Shown here piece after piece: positions 2,410-61,177 of a stretch of 64,000 nt of DNA (its first letter is position 1; each line of letters starts with the position of its first letter). The notes under the pieces were generated by a model. It searched no databases. It was given only the letters and a program-made list of their open reading frames with translations, and was not told where the DNA came from. The stretch lies in NCBI RefSeq assembly GCF_036321535.1, contig NC_087436.1, positions 63,242,001-63,306,000 on the forward strand. The letters run 5' to 3'. The position numbers and the translations under genes are program-made. This DNA comes from Camelus dromedarius. Lineage: Eukaryota.

Positions 2410-3400
2410 CTGTTCTCCCTTGCTTTTATCCCATTTCAATTACTTCCTATTTCATTTTCAAGTTCCCATTCCTCCACCTGACCCTTAAAAGTAAATGTAG
2501 AGCAGAGCTTCATCCTCAGCTTTAGGTTCTTCAAGGTTTCTATCCAAATCTTCAGCTATCTCATCTACCTCAAGACTTCTGCTATCATTTATACAATGAT
2601 GATTTTAACATTTTATTTATCTAGATCCGTATTTCTAAATTCTACCCTCATGTTATCATCACTTGACTGACTCACAGATATCTCAAACTCAGTGTCTCCA
2701 TTTTTACATTCAATTTTTCTTAATTGTTCCTTATTTTCTCTCTTTCTAAATGTACTATGATTCACACAGCTAAAGCCAGACATCAAGGATTCATCCTTAC
2801 AAGTTTCTACTGTATAGCACAGGGAACTATATTCAATATCATGTGGTAACCTATAATGAAAAAGAATATGAAAACAAATATATGTATGTGTATGTATGAC
2901 TGAAACATTATACTGTACACCAGAAATTCATGCAACATTGTAAACTGAAAATACTTCAATAAAAATTAAATTAAAGAAAGGATTCATCTTTGATTATTTT
3001 TCCTTCTCAGTTTCTCCTTTAGTTATCAAAGCCTAGCATTTTATTTGTTTACTATTTCTTTGACCCTTTTCTTCCTCTCCATTTCCACTGTTATTGCGTT
3101 GTCCATTGTATGACTACTTTATAAACTTTCATGTTAATTCATTGATTGATAATCCCACTTATTTTCTTGCCTTTAATTTCATCCTGCATGTGTCTGAATA
3201 ATCTATATAAAACACAGTGCTATCCCTCATTGTAGCTTCTTCAGAAAATGGCACCTCATACTTTTCAGGAAAACTTTAATTTCCCTGGTGTAAAACAAAA
3301 CCACTCATGATATAAAACTCACTTATATCTCTGGCTTGATTGTTCTGTGCCTTGTACAGTTCTTGCTTCATATTATGTCCTCAATAAATTCTGAAGGGGT
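2410..3400 (+). mobile_element. L2 LINE fragments, interrupted by a young L1 3' end
   Basis: Pyrimidine-rich L2-like motifs such as 'ctcacagatatctcaaactcagtgtctcca' and 'cacacagctaaagccagacatcaaggattcatc'. Confidence 0.55.
2799..2977 (+). mobile_element. 5'-truncated lineage-specific L1 (3' UTR end only) with 14-bp TSD
   Basis: 'tatagcacagggaactatattcaatatc...gaaaaagaatatgaaa...tgtacaccagaaatt...acttcaataaaa' followed by an A-rich tail; flanked by AAGGATTCATCCTT (2785-2798) and AAGGATTCATCTTT (2978-2991). Confidence 0.9.
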
Positions 3401-3870: not shown

Positions 3871-5069
3871 TTCTCTTTCTACTTTATTATATTCAGGTCA
3901 GAAATGTTAAACAGAATAATGCCTTCTGCCTCAGAAGACTTTATCAATTACACTCTTAAATATAACCACTAGAATCCTTTATCAAGGGTTTTCCATATGT
4001 TAAACCTAAAACTATTTTATGTTCTTGATACAAGATAGAGACAAAATAAAATGCATATTTGAGCAGCAGATTGACAAATTATATTTGCTTATAGTGAATA
4101 AAACTGTAGAGTATTTACAAATAACATATGAGGAATTTAGCCCTCAGCTCTCATAACTCTTCCAGATAGCATCATTAAAAATCATTATCACCCACTCAGC
4201 CTTGTTATTGTTTTTTCCTAATAGGAAAATTTATGTATTTCATTAGCACTCTTTTATTTTATGGTGAATTTATTGGTCAAAATAATTGTCGTCCAGAGTC
4301 TGAATATCCTTAATGTTTTCTACAGCAGTAAATTTCAGTAAAATTTTCAAGAATTTTAAATAATAATAGTAGGAATGAAAAATGTAAAAATCCACATTAC
4401 AATTTTTTAAATGAAAATATCCTCTAGCTAATATATAAAAAGCATATTTCATTTGAAATAGTGAACTCCACAATAATTAGACCAGACTTCTCATTTTAAA
4501 AATATAATGGTAGTTTCCAACTTTGTCAACTTAGTAATTAAGTGTCTGATAATTGATAATGGCATTCCATATTATTCCTTATTACTCTTGATGGAAAAAT
4601 CACTGTAAGGTAATAAAAAGGGGAGTCCATAGGAAATAATGTGCTTCTAATGAGATAGAAAAAGATTTCAAAGATGTTACTAGAAGCAGTACTGACAAGG
4701 AATTTCCTATGTTGGATTCTTTTGTTGTATTAATTCAATCAATTAATGAAGTATTTCTTAATTGTTAGATTTACAATCTGAAATTTCATCAAGAGAAAAA
4801 AAATTCTAATGAGTACTCCTAGTCATTCAGCGAGAGAAATAAGAGGAATACTTACTATAAAAAAAACTAGGTAGAAAAAATACTATTAAAAAAATGCATG
4901 GCATAAATTTTACAGTCAACTCACTTCCCTGGGATTTTACCATTTGCTCTCAGAGTACCTTTTAAAATATTAGAGGACAATTTCTCAGGATAACAAAATA
5001 TATTTTACTCTTGTCCCCAGTGAAAACGCATATTACATAGTATTGATTTGCTGCCTGGAGAGTTTACGT

Positions 5070-5460
5070 TGTGAAATCTGAAACTGACCCATACACAGAG
5101 GGCAGGCAAAAAGAAACAGAGGAAAGAGGCAGACCCCTCCAGATTGGTAGGTGGAAGTTTAATGAGGAAGGAAACTTTCATAGGAAGCTTGTCTTGGGCA
5201 GCCTCAAGACAACTAGATCTCCGCACCTGCCGGATAAATCTTAAGAGTTTACTTAACTGAGTTCAGTCACACTTATAGTACAGATGGTTTCAATAACATA
5301 TTGCTTTTTCAAGGCTGCAACCTTGAAGTGGCTCCTAGGGCAGGAACAATGAGTGGAATATACATTCCAAGAACTGGGGATGTGGTGAAGAACCTCTTGT
5401 TGCCCAGGTCCAGCTCACAGGTTAACTGCTGGTCGTGTTCTTATGATGACCTTCAGAACT
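5070..5460 (-). mobile_element. 3' LTR of the ERV-L element
   Basis: Homologous to 7900-8210; directly preceded on the - strand by the PPT at about 5460-5470. Confidence 0.75.
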
Positions 5461-6099
5461 TCACCCCTCATGGCTGGTTCTTACAATCTTATATGTCCCC
5501 TTCTTCGAAAATGTGCCCTGAGAATTCAGCAAGGGGTTTCATTATGATTGAGGTGGTTCATTTGTCAGCTGTCTGGCTACACTTGTGGCCTGATCCTTAG
5601 GTGTTAATGGGACTGCAGTTTTAGAAATTTGACCTGGTTTGGGCACTGTACATGTTAGCCACTGGGGGAGGCTCACTGATAGGCTTGAGGAGACAGACTA
5701 GGAGTAAAATATGCCAGACCAGGACTCCCACATCCTCCCTGCTTTCAATGGCACAGGTTCCATTCCAGGTAGAGTGCATTTCAAGAGGCCCAGCTTGCAG
5801 CAGTGGAGACTGAGTAGTTCTCCCTTACCCAAGGGTACAAAGTAACTCATTCTGGTGGGACATCTCATTGCAAATTCCAGTAGATGCCTATCCAAGGCAT
5901 GATGGGCTTGGTGTTCTCAGCAAAATAGCACTTTGATCCACAGTGAGATTCAGGACAAAGACTATCTCTCCTGACTTCTATACCTTTAGAGTGTTGATTG
6001 TCTCAGCAGGAGTTCCCAATCTGGTATATGGGGCATCAAGCCCTACTGGTTGATCATTAAAGTATTTAAATGTATTAAAGCCTGGGATAGTGTATTAGT

Positions 6100-7460
6100 C
6101 CACCCAGCCAAGGTGATTTTACTTGTTGGTAATTTAATCTGCTGGTTTAACATTCCATTTTTCCTTCTACCAACACTGCTGCTTACAGATTACAACCTAT
6201 ATAATTCTATAGGAAAGCTGGAACCTCCATTCAATGTCATGTTCAATCACTCAGTCTTGCATAGCATTACATTTGAAATGTGACCCACTGTCTATTCAAC
6301 AAGGGTATCTGTACGTGACCTTCAGCTTCTTCAATCCCCTAATGGTGGCAGCCTATTTTGTGTGGCAATAAGGAAAAGCTTGGGTTATGCCAGAAATGAT
6401 GCCCAAGCGTCCACACAAAATGAGACATTCTTAGAATACTCACTTGCAAGGAAGGAGCCGATATAATCAATTTGCCTATCCCTCAACAGTTGGGAACTCC
6501 AGTGGATGGCACCGGACTCTTTTGGCAGTGTCTCGGGTGTTATGTAAAACACATGGGACACGCTGTTACTGCATTAACTAAGTCACTGTATTTCAGGGGC
6601 AATACAGCATCCTTGGCAATATCCCATCTCACCAAGAACTACAGTAGCTGTTCTTCCTATGCATCCAACCTGCTGTGTCTTCTAAAGGGTTAGTTGCTAG
6701 AGCTTGTATATGGGCTAGAATGTCAGCTTCCTGATTGCAAGGGAGAGTCAGAGCCTTAAAAGCTGAGACATGGTAAACAGTGAGGATTACTGAGGCTTTT
6801 AGAGATGAACCCAAATGCCTTTTCACATATACTGACCCCACAAGGGCCCACTTTATGATCATCTACGCTCACCTTAGAATCACCCAACTGTCCATGTAAA
6901 AGGTTAATGGCCAGAGCTCATGAGTGATGGATGACCAGTCAAACCATTGAGTTCAGCCACTACCTACTGTGGTTCATTCCTATCTCCACCCAGATGGTAT
7001 CAATGTTGGGCTGAATAGTAATGGCCATCCACTTGAGTGGTTTCCCTGACCAGACCCATCTGTGTACCAGGCACTAGTGAGAATTTCCCCCATTCCCTCT
7101 CCACAGGCTGTGGGGGTCACCATAGGAATATGAGTGGGGGCATTTATAGGATCTCTGTTTTCTGCAGGGTCTAGCCGAGCCTGCATTCTAGAGACAGCAG
7201 GCTGCAGGACAGGGTGCTCCCCTGCTGCAAATAGGCTGCCATTTAGTCAAAGTGGGAGTGTGAGCCGTGGCAGAGGTGGGTGGAACATACTCTCAATTTA
7301 ACCTTCGACAGGAAGGAAGGTTCTTATTATGACACGCCATTACTTTGTGAGAGGATCTACCTGTAGGAGTACTGCATACATTGCTAGGAGCTGCTGCTCT
7401 GTGGAGATATATTGGGTTTTAGCAGTTTTTCAGAGTTGGGATCATACCAGTTCCCAAAAC
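6100..7460 (-). pseudogene. pol: Decayed ERV-L pol: RT connection domain, RNase H and integrase core
   Basis: Minus-strand translations: ...EQQLLAMYAVLLQVDPLT (connection domain, about 7345-7410); AWYTDGS (RNase H, about 7050-7075); YHVSA...NQEAD (RNase H C-terminus, about 6720-6780); RQIDYIGS (integrase first D, about 6455-6478); DSGSHF (second D, about 6275-6292); frameshifted VE.KNGML (E motif, about 6150-6175). Many stops and frameshifts. Confidence 0.85.
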
Positions 7461-7519
7461 TTGACAGCAGTGCCTGAGCCTTGAATCTCTGACAGCTTGT
7501 GCACCACACCCACCCCCCT

Positions 7520-7760
7520 GCTTTGCAAAATGGTACGCGATGGTCTCCAACTTAATTATCCTGCTCCCCAACCTTGTCTGCCAGTCCTGAAGCTAGTACA
7601 GTAGTAGACAACTGCATGTCCTTCTCTAACCTAAGTTCTTCTTCCCACATCCTAACTGGAGCTTCAGCCTCTGTTTGGGCATTGGTGGCCAGCAGAATTG
7701 CCCACAGTAGAGGCCAGGCTGCTGCACAGCCATTCATTTCCCTTCTTTGCTGCAGTGTGC
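7520..7760 (-). pseudogene. gag: ERV-L gag N-terminal remnant
   Basis: ORF 7552-7737 'AWPLLWAILLA...EEELRLEKD' resembles the ERV-L gag N-terminal W-PLL/coiled-coil region and sits immediately inside the 5' LTR. Confidence 0.5.
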
Positions 7761-7899
7761 TATGTGCAGTTTCTCAAACAAATGCATTAAACCAAACAGT
7801 GTTTGACCCTGTACTCTTGTGGTGGTCTACAAGCATCTAACCTATGGGCCACCCCTCCACACTTACAGGTCAGCGGCCTACCTGGGATTTCCTTCTTGG

Positions 7900-8210
7900 A
7901 TGCAGTTTTAATAAGCAAGAGAACTTCCACGTGAGGCTTATCTTTGTAACTGCAAGATCAGTAGACTTCTGTGCCCACCCTCCAGAATCTTGAGTTTATG
8001 TAGAAGTCTTAATGGGATTCAATCATGTGTACTGTCCTGATAATCTCAATAACACAGTACTCTCTCAAGGCTGCATCCTTAAAGAGGCTCTTGGTGTGGG
8101 AACAGTGGGTGGAACATGCATTCCAAGGACAGGGGAGAGCATAAGTTACCTCCAATTGCCCAGGACTGACTTAACTGGTCATCACATCCTCTTGATGACT
8201 TTCTCCAACG
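7900..8210 (-). mobile_element. 5' LTR (partial) of the ERV-L element
   Basis: Aligns by eye with 5150-5460 and ends 'gatgactttctccaacg' versus 'gatgaccttcagaac'. Confidence 0.75.
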
Positions 8211-13643: not shown

Positions 13644-14253
13644 CCCCAGAAATGGCCCAAGACACCCCTGAATAACCTCTCCAGCTAAAGACAAAAGAAG
13701 ACATTTCAGGTGTGCATGGGCAGGAGAATTTTGAGAGGTTTTTAAGCAAAGCACAGTAAACTAAGGTATGGTTGCTATGCAGATTTAAGTCTCTGCCTTC
13801 TCTGTTGATAAGAGATTCTACCCTCCCTATTTATAGCAAGGAAGACACCTTTATAAGTGGAGATTTCCCTTCTAAATGTAAATGTCTCTTACAAAAGGGT
13901 AACTCCTACTGGATTTTAAGGGCTTCTCCTGTATCTACTGTTTCTTAAAAATAATCAGACTAAAATAATCCTATGCCAAAGAGACATATTTTAGGGGGAA
14001 GGGATAAATTCTGCTCCATTTTAATAAATACTTTATATTTGACCAGAATAAGAAAATTGAACTTCTTGATATGGAAAACCATTAAGAAGAACTCTAGCTG
14101 CACAGAAATAGATACAAAAGTATATAAATGATAGAGAATTTAAGGCAAATGTGGAAAATGAAATACAAAAACAATAGTTATTTCCATGTGATGAGATGAA
14201 TTTAGATGCATTAAACAAATGTCTTATGAAAACAGAAATATACTAAGATTTTA

Positions 14254-15410
14254 AATTAAGCTTATAAGCTTTTGCACAGCAAAGGAAACCACAGCAAAAC
14301 AAAAAGACAACCTACAAATGGGAGAAAATATTTGCAAAAGATGAGACTGACAAGGGCTTAATTTGTAGAATATACAAATAGCTCATACAATTTAATAATA
14401 AAAAAAAACCAAACAACCCAATCCAAAAATGGGTAGAAGGCCTAAATAAGCCATTCTCCAATAAAGACATACAAATGACCAATAGGCACATGAAAAAAAT
14501 GCTCAGTATCATTAAGTATCAGAGAAATGCATATCAAAACTACAATGAGGTATCAACTTACACCAGTCAGAATAGCCATAATTTAAAAACCCACAAATAA
14601 TAAATGCTGGAGAGGGTGTGGAGAAAAGGGGACCCTCCTACACTGTTGTCAGGAAGGTAGTCTAGTGCAGCCATTATGGAAAACAGTACAGAGATTCCTC
14701 AAAAGACAAAAAATAGACTTACCATATGATCCAGCAATCCCATACCTGGGCATATATCCAAAGGGAACCTTAATTCTAAAAGATACATGCACCTCATTGT
14801 TCAGAGCAGCACTACAGTAGCCAAGGCATGGAAACAACCTAAATGTCCATCAACAGATGACTGGATAAAGAAGCTGTATTATATTTATACAATGGAATAC
14901 TTTTCAATCATAAAAATATAATAAAGTAATGCAATTTGCAGCAACATGGATAGACCTGAAGATTGTCATTTTAAGTTAAGTAAGCTAGAAAGAAAAAGAA
15001 AAATACCATATGACATCACTTATATGTGGAATCAAGGGAAAAAAGGCAATTGAACTTATTTACAAAATAGAAATAGACTCACAGACATAGAAAAAACTTA
15101 CTGTTACCAACAGGAAAACAGGGTGAGATGGCATAAATTGGGAGTCTGAGATTTGCAGATGCTAATTCGTATATATAAAATAGATAAACAAGTTCATACT
15201 GTATAGCATAGGAAACTATATTCAATATCTTGTACTAACTTATGGTGAAAAGAATATGAAAGTGAATATATATATATATATGTTCGTGTATGACTGAAGC
15301 ATTATGCTGTACACCAGAAACTGATATAACATTTTAAACTGACTATACTTCTATATAATATATATTTTTATATATATATATATGTATATATTTCTATATA
15401 TATATAGAAA
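14254..15410 (+). mobile_element. 5'-truncated L1: ORF2 C-terminus, 3' UTR and (TA)n-converted tail
   Basis: Encodes the L1 ORF2 Cys-rich motif CWRGCGEKGTLLHC from 14605; 3' UTR is the same family as 2799-2977; (TA)n tail at 15352-15407. Confidence 0.92.
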
Positions 15411-16249: not shown

Positions 16250-18000
16250 CATTTCTGTTTTTAAAAAATTGTGTAGATAGTTCAGGGACCACACTCTTCT
16301 ACCTCATGTGTCATCAAGGTGCATGTAAATCCCTTCTCTAGTTTTTTTTCCACTTCTGCCATCACCCCTCCAAAGGCAAGTACTCTAAAATATTTGATAT
16401 ATGTTCTTAGCTCGTATGTATCTCTGTAAAATAAGCAGTGACATTTTGCATGTTCATATGTATACAAATAACACTAAGGGTTGGCATTATTTTTTCCTAT
16501 TTTTCTCACTCAACAACTTGAGCTCTCTGTTGCTGTACCTCTGTTGTAAATTACTATTATGTTGCTTCCATCACGTGAATTCAGCACACTTCATTTAACT
16601 ACTCCCCTTTTAATGGATACCTAGCTGTCTTCAGAAACATGGAAAATGGCTTCATGATCAGTGATGCTCTTCTTTGATGAGAAATCTGGATAAAATTCAG
16701 CTTATCAGTTTTCATCTTATAAGGTCTGTTCTTTTGGCAATGAGTTTTCCTTTCCTCTAGGATACATATATTTTTCGTCTTCATTATTTTTATTCATTTT
16801 CCGAATCCTTCTTTATATATGGTGCAAAATCTAGGCCTGAGCTTATTTTCTCCACAGAAACTTAGTTTTCCCAGCTCCAGCTGCTAAACAATCTGGTATT
16901 TCTCCCTGTGTAGCACCTTCATTATCATGTATCAAGTACATATATAGACATTGGATTGCTTCTCAACATTTTATTCTTTGCATTGATCTGAGTCTTATAC
17001 TTTCATAAAGTGAACTGGTTTTATTCTACAACTTTTTAGTATAACACTCTACATTAAGGTAATCCTCCTTCTGTGACCTTCTTTTTCAAAGTCTAATAGC
17101 TCTTTCTTAACTATTATTATATTTTTTAAACATAAGAGTGAGTATAGAATTCCTAAAAAAAATCAAGCTAAGATTTTTTACTGGAAGATTTTAATTGTGA
17201 GGATATATTTACAAAAATAATTATGTGTCCCAGTAAGAAATATTGTATAATAATCAAATTAATTCAAATATTTCATGCACCTTAATAAGATTTAAAATGC
17301 TTTATCCATTAAGATATTTTCCATGCTTTTCAGGCTGATTACTATATACTGGTATTTTGCCTTAATAGTGAGAAAAGAGTCAATCTCTGTTTCAGAAATG
17401 TTGACATAGGAAAACATAGTTACTTACTGTAAGTTTAATTTTAAACATTGCATGTGTAAGAATTTACTAAGACTTGCTGATCTTGGTTACAAGATTTTTG
17501 TTTCCTCATTTTATTGCATTTTATTAAAGGAATAATTATGTAATTCACATATAATGACACTTTTCTTTTATTTTCTTATGTTTACATATCTGATACTTTT
17601 CATATAACATTGGTCACAGCCTCTAACACTGAACTAAAACACAGACACCATAGTGAGCATTATTATGGTGTATTTATTTTTAAAGATAATATGTCTAAAG
17701 ATTCTCCATCAGGTATATAAGCATTTTTACTCTCCTTATTTTGTCTAAGCATTCTTTTTATTTTTAGCTATAAACAGGGTAGAATTATATGTTTTAAAAT
17801 CTTGTTAATTATAAGACTTTTTATTAATATGATGAATTGCATTGCTAAATATTTTAATTATGACTCTTTTTACCTTTATGATATAGGCAACAGTTGATTA
17901 GAATTCATTTTTAATAGGCTATTAAATTCAATTAATTTGTATTTTCTTCAGACAGTTAACATTTATGTTTCTACATAAATTAGAGTTATAATATTTTCCT
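16250..18000 (-). mobile_element. Old L1 (L1ME/L1MD-type) fragments
   Basis: T-rich antisense L1-like text such as 'cttagttttcccagctccagctgctaaacaatc' and 'cattggtcacagcctctaacactgaac...agtgagcattatt'. Confidence 0.55.
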
Positions 18001-18026
18001 ATGATGGCATTATTTATATTAAGAAT

Positions 18027-18237
18027 ATGTCAGCCTCCTCATCTAAAAAACAGAAACAGACTTGCAGATATAGTAAACAATCTTATGGTTACTGGGAAAA
18101 ATGGAGTGGAAAGAGATAAATCTGGGAGTTTGAAATTTGCAGATTTATCCCTTTCCACTCCATTTTTCCCAGTAACCATAAGATTGTTTACTATATCTGC
18201 AAGTCTGTTTCTGTTTTTTAGATGAGGAGGCTGACAT
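18027..18237. repeat. Near-perfect inverted repeat: 98-bp arms (18027-18124 / 18140-18237), 15-nt spacer
   Basis: Base-by-base check: the reverse complement of 18140-18237 equals 18027-18124 except at one position (A18114 opposite C18150). Confidence 0.98.
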
Positions 18238-18332
18238 TTTTATAGATGAAAAAACAAATTACTTCTGTATAGCACAGGAAACTATACTTAATATCTTGTA
18301 ATTACCTTTAATGAAAAGAATATGAAAATAAA

Positions 18333-18384
<52 letters not shown>

Positions 18385-18458
18385 TGATGCTGTATACCAG
18401 AAATTGACACATTGCAACTGAGTATACTTCAATAAAAAAAGTAAAGGAAAAAAAAAGA
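18038..18458 (+). mobile_element. 5'-truncated L1 3' end carrying an internal inverted duplication, (TA)n tract and A tail
   Basis: Same 3' UTR family as about 15050-15350; TSD ATGTCAGCCTC (18027-18037) / ATGTTAGCCTC (18459-18469); (TA)n at about 18339-18381. Confidence 0.9.
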
Positions 18459-18729
18459 ATGTTAGCCTCATAAGAAAATTAAGCCCTTTTCTTTTTTGAA
18501 ATCTAATTGCTGATATAACTTGTATAAAATAGGAATTGTTGGTTCCTTTAAGTAGTTGGTAAAAATAATCTGTGAACTATTTGAGACATAAAGTTTAGGG
18601 TAGGAGATAATAAATCCCTCGTCTGTGTGAACACAAGCAGCCTTATTTGAAGTATGTTTGTCCATTCAGTCTGTTTTCTTTTTCTTTATACTCAGTGTGG
18701 TATTATAATTGAGAAGAGTTTATTATTGT

Positions 18730-18900
18730 TTTACTAGTACCAAGAAATGATCACACACATTAAGTTATTTAATCCTCAAAATAGTATGTACTGTTATTGT
18801 CAGAGAGGTTAATCAACTTGTCCAAGGCCACACAGCCAGTAAAAGGGCCACATAGATAACCAGCATTTGAATTCAGGTAGTCCATGGACTTTGTAGCCAA
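18730..18900 (-). mobile_element. MIR SINE
   Basis: 'cagagaggttaatcaacttgtccaaggccacacagccagtaaaagg...atttgaattcaggtagtc' is the reverse MIR core. Confidence 0.75.
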
Positions 18901-19239
18901 TACCCTAAAAGCCACCTCCTTAAAAATAAGATTTTAAAAGCCTGTGAAGTGTTGATTCATTCAAAATCTTTGAAATGTTTATTTATTCAAAATCTTGGCC
19001 TCAATATCTACTTTTATTTTTATTTATAGATTACCTCTTAGTCATCGTCTAGAACTACTCATCTCCTCCACATCTACCACATCTACACTTTATTAACCTT
19101 CAGCATCTGGATATAGGAGAACTACCTCTGCAAACATAGTCTTGAACATCATATGGCTGTGAGGTTGTGTAGGATATAGGATACAAGGTCAAATGCTCAC
19201 CATAACCCTACAGCATGCTTAGAGCAATCTAAGTGTGAC

Positions 19240-19460
19240 TATGTCCACAGATTCCAGAGTCCGTCTGGTCTGATCCTCACTCCCTACTTGGTTGTGTGGC
19301 TTGAATTACATATTTACATTCCCTGTACTTCAGCTTTCTCATTTGTTAAGTGGGGGTAATAATATCACTTACCATGCAGACCTTATGTTAGATTTAACAA
19401 ACCAATATACACAAAGAACTTAAAACAGTATCTAATAGTATATATTGCTTAAGTATTTCT
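19240..19460 (+). mobile_element. MIR SINE
   Basis: 'ttccctgtacttcagctttctcatttgttaagtgggggtaataatatcacttacc' matches the MIR core. Confidence 0.7.
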
Positions 19461-23200: not shown

Positions 23201-23378
23201 TTTTTTAATTGAAGTATAGTCAGTTTACAATGTTGTGTCAATTTCTGGCGAATGGTGTAATGTTTCAGTCATACATATCTGTACATATATTCATATCATA
23301 TTCCTTATCATTATAGGTTATTATAAAATACTGAACATAGTTCCCTGTGCTATACAGAAGAAGCCTGTATATCTATCT
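23201..23378 (-). mobile_element. 5'-truncated L1 3' end (antisense) with 17-bp TSD
   Basis: Poly-T then 'attgaagtatagtcagtttacaatgttgtgtcaatttctgg...ttccctgtgctatacag'; TSD ACATTATTCCTATTCTT (23184-23200) / ACATTATTCCTACTCTT (23379-23395). Confidence 0.92.
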
Positions 23379-23569
23379 ACATTATTCCTACTCTTAATAA
23401 GTTTCTCAAGACTTACCTGGAATACTTTCACCTCCCCTCCTGTCATTCTACTTCACAAGGTGAAATTTCATCAATATTTTAAAGCTTCAAATGTCGTATT
23501 GTCATTTTAGTTACAAGCCTCTCGCTGACACACTTTAGAGTCAAATTTCTTATTCTCTTCTCTGTGCAT

Positions 23570-50874: not shown

Positions 50875-51800
50875 AACAAAGAATAAAATCAGAGAATATA
50901 TCCAAAATATACAAGAACTCTTAAATTTCAAAAAAAGAATGCAGGAGAAAAATTGAAATGGGCAAAAGACCTCAATATAAAAATGGCAATGAACATATAA
51001 AAATGGCAAATAAACATATAAAAAAGATTCAACATCATTTGTGATTGGGGAAATGCAAACTAAAACATAATGAGATACTACTACATACACATTAGAATGG
51101 CTAAAAACCAAATCACAACAAGGACAAACAACAACAAAAATCGAACAATATAAATTGTTAGTGAGAACGTGGAGCAATAGGAACTCTCACTAACAGTGGG
51201 AATTAAGCCTGGTACATCCACTTTAGTACAAAATATTCTTACAGAGCTAAACATAATTTTGCCATAGGATTAAGCAATTATTCTGTTGGATATTTATCAA
51301 ACTTACTTAAAAATTGATTCCACAAAAAAACTTTAACATGAGTAAATATAGCAATTTTATTCAAAATCATCAAAAAGTGTAAGGAACCAGATGTCCTTCA
51401 AAGTGAATGGATAAACAAATTGTGATGCATCCATAAAATTAAATGCTATTCAGTGACAGAAACAAATGAGCTATAAAGTTACACCAAAACCTGGATGCAA
51501 TTTAAATGCATATTGCTAAGTAAAAGAAGCTAGTCTGAAAAGGTAACATACTGTTTATATGAAATTTTACAAAAAGTATAGCTATAGAAATAGTAAACAT
51601 ATGAGTGGTTACTAGGTGTTCTGGGTTGGGAAGAGTGAGGGAAGCGGGTGAAACAACTGAAGAAAAGGGATTTTTTAGGACAATATAACTATCCTGTTTA
51701 ATATTTAAGTGGTGGATATATCACACTCCACATTTGTGAAAACTCAGAAATTTATAGCACAAACAGTAAATCTTAATGTATACACTTTTTTAAAAAATTA
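50875..51800 (+). mobile_element. L1 (L1MB/L1MC-type) ORF2 end and 3' UTR
   Basis: 'gggaaatgcaaactaaaacataatgagatactactacatacacattagaatggctaaaa', 'gtgaatggataaacaaattgtg', 'ctaagtaaaagaagctagtctgaaaagg'. Confidence 0.85.
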
Positions 51801-51809
51801 GAAGGACAG

Positions 51810-54318
51810 ATAAATTTACTGGCGAATTCTACCAAATATTTAATGAAGAATTATCTTAATCTTTTTTACAGTCTTCCAAAAAATAAAAGAGGAGAGAACA
51901 CATCCAAATTCTTTCCAAAAGTCAGAATTACCATAAGGCCAAAATTAGACAAACACATTAAAAGAAAAGAAATTGCAGAACAATATCCTTTCTTAATATA
52001 AGAGCAAAAATCCCCAGAAAATCAATACAAATCATCAATACAAATCCTACAGCATGTAAAAAGGATTACACACCTTGACTAAGTAGGATTTAACCAAGGA
52101 ATGCAAGGTTATTTGGTATGAGAAAATGAGTCACTAAAATACACCATATTAGAAAAAAATCATGAACACTTCAATAGATATAGATTTTAAAAAATGACAA
52201 AATTCAATATCCTTTCATGATAAAAACACCAAAAAACTGGAAGGGAATTTCCTCAAAACCTAAGTCATACTTACTGGAGTAAGAATGAAAGCTTTCCCCT
52301 GAAATCAGGAATAAGGCTCAGTATTCTGTCATCTCTTTTCAACAATGTACTATAGGTTCTAAGCAGGACAGTTAGGCACGAAGAAAGAAATAAGGGTACC
52401 TAGATTATAAAGGAAGAAGTAAAATTATGTCTAGTTGGAGGTGGCATGATCTTATATATAGGAACTTTCTCAACTCCACAAATATCCATTAGAACTAACA
52501 AACAACGTTAAAAAAGTTGCAGGGCACAAGCTCAATATTAAAAAATAAGTTACATTTTGATACACTAGCAATAAACAATCTGAAAATGAGACTAAGAAAA
52601 TTCCATTTACATAGCATTAAGAAGAATAAAATTCTCAGGAATAAATTTGACACAAGGAGTGCAATACTTGCATGGTGAAAACTAAAAACATTGTTGAAAT
52701 AAAATAAATACCACCAAAAAAAGAAAAAAATCCCTTGATTATGGATTGAAAGGCATAATACTATTAAGACAGCTATACTCTAAAAATTGATCTACAGATT
52801 TAATGTAATACTTATCAAAATTCCAACTACTTTTTTTTCCCCCAGAAATAGAAAAGCTGATCCTGAATACTCAAGAAACCCAGGCCCCCAAAAACAATTT
52901 TGCAAAAGAACAAAGTTGGAGGATTTGTACTTCCCAATTTCAAAACTAAACTACAAAACTAGAGTAATTAAGACAGCATGGTACTGGCATAAAGATAGAC
53001 CAAAAAAACAATGAAATAGAATTGAGATTCCAGAAATAAACTTGTGGTCAATTGATTTTGACAAAGGTGCCAAAAGCATTGAATGAAGGTAGCATAGTCT
53101 TTTCAACAAATGGTTCTAGAACATCTGGATATCAACATGCTATAGAATGAATTTGAATCCCTACCTCACATTATATACAAACATTAACTAAAAATTGACC
53201 AAAATCCTGCAAATTATTGCTAAAACTATAAAGCCCTCCAGAGAAAATATACTTGTCAATCTTTGTAATCTTGAATGTGACAACAACAAAATAAGCAACA
53301 ACATAAAAATAGATAAATTGGACTTCACTGAAATTAGAAGCTTTTGTGCATCAAAGCACATTATCAAGAAAGTGAAAAGACAAATCTATATCCGATAAGG
53401 GCCTACCATTTAGAATATATAGACACGTCTTATATCTCAGCAATAAACAGGTAAATTACCCACTTACAAATAGACAGGATTTAGCTAGATATTTCTACAA
53501 AAAAGATATGCAAATGGTCAATAAACACACGAAAAGATACCTAACACCATTAGCAAAATGTAAATCAAAATTACAGTGAGATACCATTTTATACCCACTA
53601 GGATGGCTATATTCAAATGAATAAAAAATAACATGTGTTGCTGAATATGTGGAAAAATTGAAATTCTGACCTATTGCTGATAAGAATGTAAAGTGTTCAG
53701 GCTTCTGTGGAAAACAGTCTGGCTGTTCCTCAAAAAGTTAAACATGCAGTTGTCCTATAACCCAGAGATTCTTTTCTAAGCTCTGTACCCAAGACATATC
53801 CACATAAAAACTTGTAGATGGAGGTTTACAACAGCATTATTTATAATTGCTCAAAAATGGAAACAATGCAAGTGCTCATCAACTGATGGATAGATAAATA
53901 AATCATCATATCAACACAATGGAATAAATTCATTCAATGCAATAAAAAGAAATGAAATACTAATACATGCCATGACATGGATGAACCTAGAAAATATCCT
54001 AAGTGAAAGGGGCTAGTCACAAAGGCCCACATATTGAATGTTTCAGTTTATATAAAATATCCAGAGTAGACAAACTGTTCAAGAGAGAATGTAAATTAGT
54101 TGTTTCCTGGGGTTGGGAGTAGGGCAGAAACGGGAGTGACTACTACCTGATACAGAGTTCTTGTTATTGTTATTGTTTTTTGCAGTGGTAATAAAATATT
54201 CTGGAATTAGACAAAGGTGATGGTTGTACAGTCTGCCATACATACTAAAAATCAGTTAACTGTATACCTTAAAATAGGGAATTTTATGTTACATGAATTA
54301 TATCTCAGTTAAAAGAAG
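51810..54318 (+). mobile_element. L1MB-type LINE: decayed ORF2 (RT to C-terminus) and 3' UTR
   Basis: ORF fragments IYRFNVILIKIP and YKTRVIKTAWYWHKDR are L1 ORF2 motifs; degenerate KLSLFADDMILY at about 52420-52460; L1MB-type end 'tttatgttacatgaattatatctcagttaaa'. Confidence 0.9.
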
Positions 54319-58485: not shown

Positions 58486-61177
58486 CATGTGTGCCACTGG
58501 ATGCAAAGGAAGAGAAAATAATTAGTCAAACAAGCACCATCACAGGAAAAAGTCAAAGACATGGTAGAACCATGCTTAAATATGTTTTGGTAATGTAGTG
58601 CTGACATAAAAAAACAGTATAGATACATTAAAATCCATATTGTGAGTAGAAACCAGGAAATAATCATTTTGTGATAATTAGACATACATTGGAGTACTGT
58701 ATAGGATAGATATATTTAGACAACCTCTCTCAGAAACTGTATTTGCTAGAATTCCAGTTAAATTACTTACACTATCTCATCTCTTCATCTATAATTTATG
58801 GGCCCCTAATAAGGAAGGTTTTACAGCAATCAGTAGTTCCTGTCAAAAATCTTGGCAGTAATGTAGAGATAAATTCGTGAACTTGAACAGACCACTGGGA
58901 ACTCAGATCATTAATTCATCAATTAATGAGGCTTTGTTCTATCGACCTTTGGTTTTATCAGAAAATCCTAAAGTGAGGGTTTGAATCCTATCATCTTGAA
59001 CTAGAAGCTCTAATACTGCCACTGTGTAAACATTGGTTTATATCAGGGTTTAGATAGTGGTTTTCATTCCAAGAAAAAAAAGAACACATCTCCATTAAAT
59101 TATTTTCAGTGTGGAGGTATTTTATTGATCAAAATCTCCATTTGTGAAGATATTTATTCCTTTGAAATACATCCCTATTGTGCCACAGTCACACCAAATG
59201 ACTCTCTCCACTGTAATGGTTTTAACTCACTGATATGTGTCCAATAGTTGAGAATATCTCTTCACAAGGTGTGGAAAATTGACTCACTTCTGAGAAAGAC
59301 AATCACATACCACTTCACATTTCTTTCCTTCCAAATAGGCCTTCCTTCTTATAACCTGGACCATTTGAAAATCCTGGTGGAATGAAGACTCAGAGAAACA
59401 AAAAGGCAAAGAATCACTGATAAATCATATACAATCATAATCATATACAAAATATTATAAGATTGGGGGAATGATTAAAAATAAATATTTGTGTTGTTCA
59501 ATCTTGTAAAAACAAAAATACAAGGTGATTTAAATACCTACATTACTGCCAAGATTTTTGGCATGAACTACAGTGTCTAATGTATCAATTTTTTTATTAA
59601 GGGAATTTTCATAATTTACAAAGGATTAATTAAGAGAAGTTGCGTAATGAATTTGGTAGAAGCATGAAAGTGTATATGTAAGCAATTCTTTATTCTTTAT
59701 CATAAAATTCTATCAAGGAATATTGACAAAGATTGTTTTATATTTACCCATCTGAAAACCTTGTATTTACTTGTCCTATTTTGTTTTCAAAAAACCTCCT
59801 TCTATGGTGCAAACTTATCGGTGAAATTTGAAGATAAATTACAATTATTTACATATATACTAGGCACAATGAATCTAACTGCCTTATGCAGAATAATCCA
59901 GTAATTATATCTCATCATACAGTATATTTGTATCTAATGAGCCAGATGTTGAAAATGGAACTATTCAGCAAAGCATTGAGCAATTTATCACAAAATTCAC
60001 CATTTCATCTCCTTGCAAACAAGACTACACATGTTATCTTTTTCTATTGTTCTTTAAAGAAAACTAGGAAAGGAAAAATACATGTACATGTAGGTCCTGT
60101 TGCTCTGGAATTATTCCCTCAGGATTTCAGGTAGAATCACATGCAAGTCAGTAAGCTAAAATCATTCCCTTTATATGTTTGTTTCCTCCAACCATTCTCA
60201 TTTAATCAATTTGGTCTGAGACAATAGCAAAAAGCATCTTTACCCATAAAACTAAAATATGTAACTAAAAAAAAAATCTTAGCACGAATTACAGGTAACA
60301 TGAAAATGTTAATATATATTCTGTCGATTTCTTCTGCCTCTGGGTACACAGATTCATTTTTGATCATGGTAGGAGCTGTGTAAAGAATGTTCCCTGAGAA
60401 AATGATCCTCTAGGTACTGTGCTTCAGAGTTCTTTTATTATTGTTCATTGTGAGGCTTTACTGAGGGACAAACACTTATCACACCTATGCTTGCTTGAGA
60501 AGAGGACCCGTGGCCCTCTTCTGTCACCAGAGTGCCAGTGAGTGAGGATTCCAGGACAAGTGGAAAGCGATAGAAGAGTTTTCAGAAAGATCAAACTCTC
60601 TAACTGTGCTCAGTCAGAGGAGATGAGAGAAGAGGGTTCTGGATATGGAGGAGTAAAAGAGGAGAATGAGACACCCAGATAATGGAACTGTGCAGCCACA
60701 CTGGCTTTTCTAACCAGAGGACTCATACAGAAGAAGAACTATGTGAGTTATGCCTACACTTAGCATAATTGCAAATTATTGAAGTCAGATAATTATGCGT
60801 TAATATTTAACAGGTTTGCCGTGGTTATTATTGTTCAAATTAAAAGATCAAGAAAAGGAGAGATGGAGTTGTGTGAGTATCCACATGTCTTGCTTTTCAT
60901 GGCTGGAAATTAATATACATGATGTCAATTTTTTAAGTAGATTAGATAGTTGTATATAATGTGTAAGTTAAATTCATAAGAATCAGTAAATATGAACAAA
61001 ATTCAGTGCTTTCTTCAGCAAAATGGGGAAGTGAGTGTTGTTTTATACCTTTTGAGGATTTTTTTCATTTTTTTAATACAAACATGTTTTTCATATGTAA
61101 GAAACTAGTGTAATTAAAATGCAAAAAAGTCATCGGTTTTTAGACGTAGCAGCTAATACATAAAATACGGTGGTATT

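Follow-up and report, generated by a model that had tools for sequence, protein, structure and literature searches.

The dromedary genome carries a near-perfect palindrome whose two arms appear far younger than the old L1 copy in which they are embedded. We analysed a stretch of 64,000 nucleotides of Camelus dromedarius DNA (the window; G000:C1:63242001-63306000 of an assembly of 2.31 Gb in 171 contigs), which is AT-rich and contains several L1 remnants. The age gap between the arms and the element is our main new result, and it warns against calling inverted duplications at old L1 junctions products of integration. A single replication or repair template switch that took place late, well after the L1 had inserted, is the probable origin of the structure.

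The arms of the palindrome are complementary at 97 of 98 positions and enclose a loop of 15 nt; the single mismatch is formed by A18114 in the left arm and C18150 in the right arm. Recomputation reproduced exactly the arms, coordinates, identity and loop length given in the first-pass annotation of this DNA. An inverted-repeat scan of the 64-kb window (score of at least 16, spacer of at most 100 nt) returned the palindrome as the only inverted repeat that is not a microsatellite; the other repeat returned was an AT run. The fold lies inside the L1, 107 nt in, and 87 of the 98 arm bases are L1. Comparison with 31-50 relatives showed that, beyond the 5-bp fold, 11 nt of TSD core and 82 nt of L1 (93 nt) were copied backwards. 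The earlier claim that the inverted copy includes host target DNA and carries the C of the left TSD was borne out: the 11 host nucleotides are present and the C is kept. Folded as RNA, the palindrome yielded z scores of -31 for the + strand and -28 for the - strand, values equalled by none of 200 shuffles. As predicted in the annotation, all 98 pairs of the long stem close on the - strand, with the mismatch becoming a G-U pair. The features of the locus are collected in the table.

Features of the palindrome and of the surrounding L1 insertion (positions in the window)
Feature	Position	Strand	Remarks
Host DNA left of the insertion, ancient antisense L1 ORF2 remnant	16751..18020	-	extends shortly right of 18470
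Left TSD, probably 17 nt	18021..18037	+	begins at TT/AAGA endonuclease-type site; inner 11 nt (18027-18037) are the outer end of the left arm
Left arm	18027..18124	+	11 nt host TSD and 87 nt L1
L1 3' UTR segment A	18038..18144	+	5' piece of the 5'-truncated L1, from alignment with genomic copies
Loop, 15 nt	18125..18139	.	ordinary L1 sequence, closed by 5-bp inverted repeat 18120-18124/18140-18144
Right arm	18140..18237	-	takes the place of 20 nt of L1 family sequence
Templated reverse-complement tract in the right arm	18145-18237 (93 nt)		from 18142 (96 nt) if G18142 was copied
Four-T filler	18238..18241	+	return junction
L1 3' UTR segment B	18242..18454	+	resumed L1; (AT)n run 18328-18381, short deletion, degenerate poly(A) tail
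Right TSD, probably 15 nt	18455..18469	+	T allele, without one AT

The palindrome is real and is present in three individuals. Fifteen of the 24 sequencing runs listed contain 0.94-0.98 of the words from 16800-19400, and 11 of these 15 carry no possible-source mark. Contigs of four of the 24 runs were placed on the window, two from DNA (X12 and X13) and two of RNA type (X16 and X18). X12 and X13 stem from two studies, neither of them marked as a possible source, and each provided a 97-nt contig (18084-18180) with no differences that spans the loop, the inner junction (61 nt + 36 nt) and both mismatch bases. The check by independent data that the first-pass annotation had proposed is thus available, with the inner junction and the mismatch bases of both arms carried by spanning contigs from two studies. 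An artefact of assembly, or a fold-back made during library preparation, has a negligible chance of having created the palindrome. It would be in line with the depth of the loop contig, which is below that of the flank (5.4 versus 21.2 in X12 and 8.1 versus 12.5 in X13), and with the absence of the outer junction (18237/18242) among the 32 contig pieces listed for X12, X13, X16 and X18, with 2650 more outside the listing; the shallow loop contig may, however, reflect hairpin bias or heterozygosity. Against an artefact stand the recurrence of the same junction and mismatch in two independent studies, the word content of the 15 runs and the distribution of bases at the mismatch. There, the right arm holds the L1-family base (77% of 31 relatives), whereas the left arm holds the changed one; a single-molecule chimera would have copied the changed base. 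No palindrome-free allele was listed in the two DNA runs, and metagenome contigs gave no matches. Contig joints leading from 18138/18139 to 18263 we take to be paralogous L1 contigs because L1 resumes in them only past the locus-private base 18261 and because their depth in X16 is far above that of the flank.

The parent sequence was reconstructed from genomic relatives of the L1. Segment A shares 86-91% identity with the 39 other genomic copies listed (from 40 scored of 1768 candidates), and no sibling source element above 91% identity was found among these 40. With no close sibling, a divergent source element is an unlikely way to explain away the clock result given below, within a search that was not exhaustive. 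Family counts leave out L003, a near-duplicate of L002, as well as L038 and L058, which are the locus's own copies; score and coverage cut-offs retained 31 of 37 copies in one alignment and 50, 45 and 48 of 55 in others. Relatives of about 90% identity read ATTTG, 15 nt, CAAAT, 20 nt and then ATAGAT. At the palindrome, the family's 20 nt are gone and 93 nt of backward copy plus four T are found instead, which agrees with the roughly 20 nt that the annotation had reported as replaced. The segment at 15050-15190, which had served there as the intact paralogue, is only 73% identical and is superseded by the closer relatives of about 90%, with the 20-nt replacement left standing.

The 5-bp inverted repeat ATTTG/CAAAT and its 15-nt loop are native to the whole L1 family, and two intact copies fold in the same register. 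C18122 is present in 9 of 50 relatives and its pairing partner G18142 in 2 of 50. Of the 5-bp ATCTG/CAGAT microhomology originally proposed for the switch, the family-native repeat at the fold remains; G18142 was probably copied or corrected during the event and did not constitute pre-existing homology, and as little as 2 bp of homology may have served the switch. The left arm departs from the family majority at 9 of its 87 L1 positions, 8 of which it has in common with the right arm. The arm-shared alleles at 18046 and 18102 are private to the locus (0/50 and 1/50 relatives, respectively).

The insertion displays the hallmarks of L1 integration, namely an endonuclease site, a TSD and poly(A). 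The site TT/AAGA is a common variant of the L1 endonuclease site. The preference of the enzyme is given as TTTT/AA (PMC2912911). Alignment of the two flanks indicates that the TSD is probably longer than the 11 bp first assigned to it: its left copy would span 17 nt and its right copy 15 nt, and the two copies differ by one C/T difference and one AT indel. The content attributed to the left arm, TSD followed by truncated L1 3' UTR, is upheld. The host ORF2 remnant matches young L1s of the same genome at approximately 62-68% in DNA, a weak and patchy homology, and for the unique left flank no paralogue was found in the genome. The target site translates as YEADIFLI versus YQATITLI in young L1s. 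Both arms carry C, whereas young L1 ORF2 agrees at this place with the T of the right TSD; with this one distant outgroup as reference, the C common to both arms may be a change that postdates the insertion. Of the three copies of the TSD, two (the right TSD and the copy in the arm) may be missing the same AT, their other differences being confined to the outermost 4 nt. In all three alignments, made at a gap cost of 6, the host ORF2 remnant aligned ungapped to the left TSD, which has the AT, although the total scores for the left and right forms are near ties (63 versus 61, 63 versus 61 and 71 versus 72). The host reading frame thus leans slightly towards the left form as the ancestral one, and a motif search to polarise the AT indel by the host ORF2 remnant gave no match.

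To estimate the age of the element, we used the part of segment B ahead of the (AT)n run. In this tail (18242-18328), 5 of 73 conserved columns deviate from the family majority and 3 of 68 from a similarity-picked set; segment 18382-18434, with several differences beside the deletion, was excluded from the estimate. Other family copies average 4.6-5.4% difference in the tail. Judged by these differences, the L1 copy of the palindrome is of ordinary age for its family, with a tail that is approximately 4.5-7% diverged. Arms duplicated at insertion and left alone would be expected to differ at about 9-13 sites, but they differ at only 1 of 98. The probability of finding at most one arm difference is 0.0015 at d = 4.5%, 0.019 at 3% and 0.098 at 2%; the observed divergence amounts to approximately 0.5% per lineage (95% interval 0.01-2.8%). 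Together with the shared private mutations, this low divergence implies that a long time passed between insertion and the event that made the arms or last equalised them. We firmly conclude from these sequence comparisons that this event was late, roughly in the last tenth of the age of the L1 copy.

A late template switch would account for the structure as follows. A short L1 tail would have inserted normally at the endonuclease site and then aged for most of its history. A nascent strand would subsequently have stalled just past the family's 5-bp inverted repeat and moved to a reverse template, by folding back on itself or by crossing to the other parental strand where it lay exposed. Copying would then have run in reverse for 93-96 nt, across the 5' piece of the L1 and into the TSD. 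The nascent strand would next have added a few filler T and returned to the normal template 20 nt beyond its exit point; a later G>A change in the left arm would have given the sole mismatch. We infer the switch of strand, its timing as a single late event and its replication setting from the anatomy and the age gap, both of which are observed. Most simply, the event was an ordinary post-insertion template switch that is not specific to L1. The first-pass annotation had proposed fold-back copying after the 5' junction had formed. Its reverse copy across the L1-host junction, made after that junction existed, is retained here, and the arm clock places the event late.

In sequence terms, the product is best read as a 3-2-1-4 template-switch mutation, a known type of which this is an exceptionally long case. 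Sequence from just upstream reappears in the inserted tract as its reverse complement (97/98), and the switch points, read from paralogues, fall at 18027 (point 3), ~18119-18122 (point 2), ~18141-18144 (point 1) and 20 family nt further on (point 4). Switches of this order can result either from fold-back or from a jump onto the parental strand opposite, and the report that defines them favours the jump (PMC5453318). This and related studies describe a reverse copy of upstream sequence after a short spacer and a return downstream, which together make one inverted repeat, with little homology at the switch points and with chained switches among the cases (PMC5453318; PMC7954356; bioRxiv 10.1101/2021.11.26.470150). 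In these respects the palindrome is alike. It differs from the typical examples in that its tract measures 93-96 nt versus a median of 12 nt, in that its ancestral state comes from paralogues and not from an orthologue, and in that it crosses an L1-host junction, ends in a TSD and has a 4-nt filler. The literature gives tract lengths in apes with a median of 12 nt and a maximum of 128 nt, and longest tracts in unmasked human DNA of 97-180 nt per individual. A tract of 93 nt is rare and at the long end of the published lengths, yet inside the published ranges. Snap-back synthesis at a break would leave the same sequence product. Some observations speak against a late switch. Copying ended within the TSD, 6 nt short of the nick, for which a random late switch has no reason; a tract so far above the median is a rare event, and no palindrome-free orthologous allele was seen. 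The filler T need an extra step because one switch leaves the four T at 18238-18241 over. Three readings of the filler are at hand: a relic of a copy that reached the nick, an inversion of the family's AAAA, or renewed copying of the left-arm A-run. On the late-switch reading, the palindrome is ordinary in kind, a clean case among the rare long members of a known mutation class, and its main use is that many L1 relatives reveal the sequence from which it arose. The text of the open-access literature searched yielded no description of the locus or of its exact arrangement.

The position of the tract end is better explained if the fold-back occurred during L1 integration and the arms were homogenised later, which we regard as unlikely but as a serious contender. 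According to this scheme, the 5' junction forms, the second strand folds on the 5-bp repeat (or a hairpin is sealed on broken cDNA), the copy runs to the endonuclease nick, where the template ends, and rejoins the cDNA 20 nt on; later arm-to-arm switches then equalise the arms. The tract does end at or near the outer edge of the TSD. If the right-TSD form were ancestral, the four T would reach the nick exactly, with 3 of 4 matches, as expected for run-off; the AT that both the right TSD and the arm copy can be read to lack, with extra differences only in the outermost 4 nt, would fit this. There are also precedents: four somatic fold-back inverted duplications of 52-220 bp at L1 sites (PMC10191854), two L1-site cases with 2-bp homology (bioRxiv 10.1101/2024.12.14.628481), cDNA snap-back reported for R2, and documented homogenisation of inverted-repeat arms. 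The L1-site fold-backs resemble the palindrome in their length of 52-220 bp, their 5' position, a small hairpin, short homology and the retention of the TSD (PMC10191854; bioRxiv 10.1101/2024.12.14.628481). In the text of these papers, however, upstream genomic DNA is copied before the L1 is joined, although their figures may show cases that contain L1. At the palindrome, by comparison, the fold lies inside the L1, the copy takes in both L1 and TSD, the L1 then resumes, and the arms look far younger.

Several further points disfavour an origin at integration. It needs two processes, and a palindrome of about 100 bp has to survive for the whole age of the element. A duplication as old as the insertion is at odds with the single arm difference and is rescued only by homogenisation. 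The host ORF2 remnant aligns ungapped to the left TSD, though with near-tied scores, and the filler T have the two other readings given above. The most specific form of this explanation, a fossil of L1 second-strand synthesis that ran off exactly at the nick and whose arms were kept 99% identical by repeated arm-to-arm copying, is doubtful. Run-off at the nick as an outcome of integration was not described in the open-access text that entered the comparison. If true, the fossil would show directly that completion of the 5' junction precedes the end of second-strand synthesis, and it would be a natural, dated gauge of how a mammalian palindrome of 100 bp with a short spacer evolves in concert. 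If it proved as old as the insertion, the palindrome would bear on the order of L1 second-strand synthesis and on the germline homogenisation rate of short-spacer palindromes.

Inversion of L1 RNA-derived sequence by twin priming or one of its template-switching variants is highly improbable, although two observations would fit it. Another copy of the same L1 family, L020, has an ordinary twin-primed tail (348-620; G000:C5:23282147-23282438) with a breakpoint near the same site: its inverted piece starts at TTTGCAAAT, the fold site of the palindrome. Moreover, the return junction has 8 nt that read as the family sequence of that place in reverse complement. Twin priming and its variants share with the palindrome an antisense L1 piece in a TSD-flanked insertion and a small deletion at the breakpoint, but they place the antisense piece beside the TSD (twin priming) or invert L1 only (the variants) (PMC12016303; bioRxiv 10.1101/2024.08.27.596794). 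The palindrome, in contrast to such products, has the order sense-antisense-sense; its antisense piece comes after the sense copy of the same L1 segment and duplicates the whole of it, 11 host nucleotides lie in the inverted tract, and locus-private mutations recur in both arms. The argument made in the annotation against classical twin priming, namely that host DNA lies in the inverted copy and that the L1 segment is duplicated, is confirmed.

The annotation had also suggested a search for other copies of this L1 tail folded back at the same ATCTG/CAGAT, and none was found by motif search or anchor scans. The hairpin motif, with up to three mismatches, had 79 matches in the genome, and only the palindrome locus matched exactly. 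Twenty of the 79 loci were cut out and examined, and in the 19 besides the palindrome there was no self fold-back; one of the loci, L044, has a 53-nt inverted match 321 nt away. Scans for three segment A anchors paired with their reverse complements returned the palindrome locus twice and one other locus, L074, once. L074 was rejected as a second fold-back, having no long inverted match. The same scan with an anchor from an older family found no places. One tail anchor was found at 17 places, of which 15 were cut out; their inverted matches are 68-93% alike and were not accepted as fold-backs but read as separate L1 copies lying tail to tail, a reading checked base by base only for L072. Exact anchors miss most diverged copies, and the anchor scans accordingly yield no rate.

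Another tail anchor led to an independent fold-back at L080 (1495-1590; G000:C7:54287512-54287607), which has perfect arms of 35 bp, a 12-nt loop and then a second short fold-back. It lies in an older L1 3' UTR, far from any TSD, in a host copy approximately 18-22% different from the nearest relatives compared. L080 demonstrates that fold-backs of L1 tails need no junction and can be chained; the scan that found it demanded exact anchor matches in both arms, however, and so favours arms that are nearly identical. Among the other loci, L1 tails face each other tail to tail, less than 300 nt apart, in L059-L073. One of these, L072 (1443-1755), is a nested insertion that has a TSD to itself; in L073, two young L1s make up an inverted repeat of 90%, each arm at least 1.5 kb long. 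At L004 (471-518), a perfect 48-nt palindrome occupies the TA/TG/CA microsatellite part of an L1 tail.

The palindrome is most likely neutral. Selection for the hairpin as an RNA or DNA structure, with a putative role as a source of endo-siRNA, as an ADAR substrate or as a regulatory cruciform, is very unlikely, even though the fold is very stable on both strands. A transcript of the + strand would place A18114 opposite C, so that editing would restore the pair. An A opposite C is a favoured context for editing. Template switches did create human miRNA hairpins (PMC10710096), and these resemble the palindrome in their one-step perfect stem and a loop of more than 10 nt. The palindrome's stem of 98 bp is, however, about three times the approximately 35 bp preferred for pri-miRNA (PMC10710096). 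In addition, arm identity is explained by neutral late origin or conversion, and the locus lies inside dead repeats. In the window, Rfam gave no matches, and neither did Pfam for the 150 longest of 325 ORFs of at least 50 amino acids, a search of low sensitivity in which no coding exon was recognised. The RNA-type runs X16 and X18 list no contig across the palindrome; X16 covers 17795-17968 and X18 none of the flank, so they are uninformative on transcription. The processing by ADAR, Drosha or Dicer and the fragility that the annotation had raised stay putative.

Further L1 remnants of different ages are located at 2798-2972 (-), 14226-15358 (+), 23203-23379 (-) and 50898-54007 (+), and 51794-52801 gives a weak translated match to the RT region. 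A 34-nt inverted repeat (58833-58866 and 59538-59571) is 94% complementary over a distance of 671 nt and possibly represents either sequences flanking an inversion or the terminal repeats left by an old DNA transposon. Finally, a 91-nt direct repeat of 79% identity (5290-5380 and 8046-8136), possibly an old repeat element, surrounds a GC-richer stretch (5000-8000, GC 0.41-0.49).
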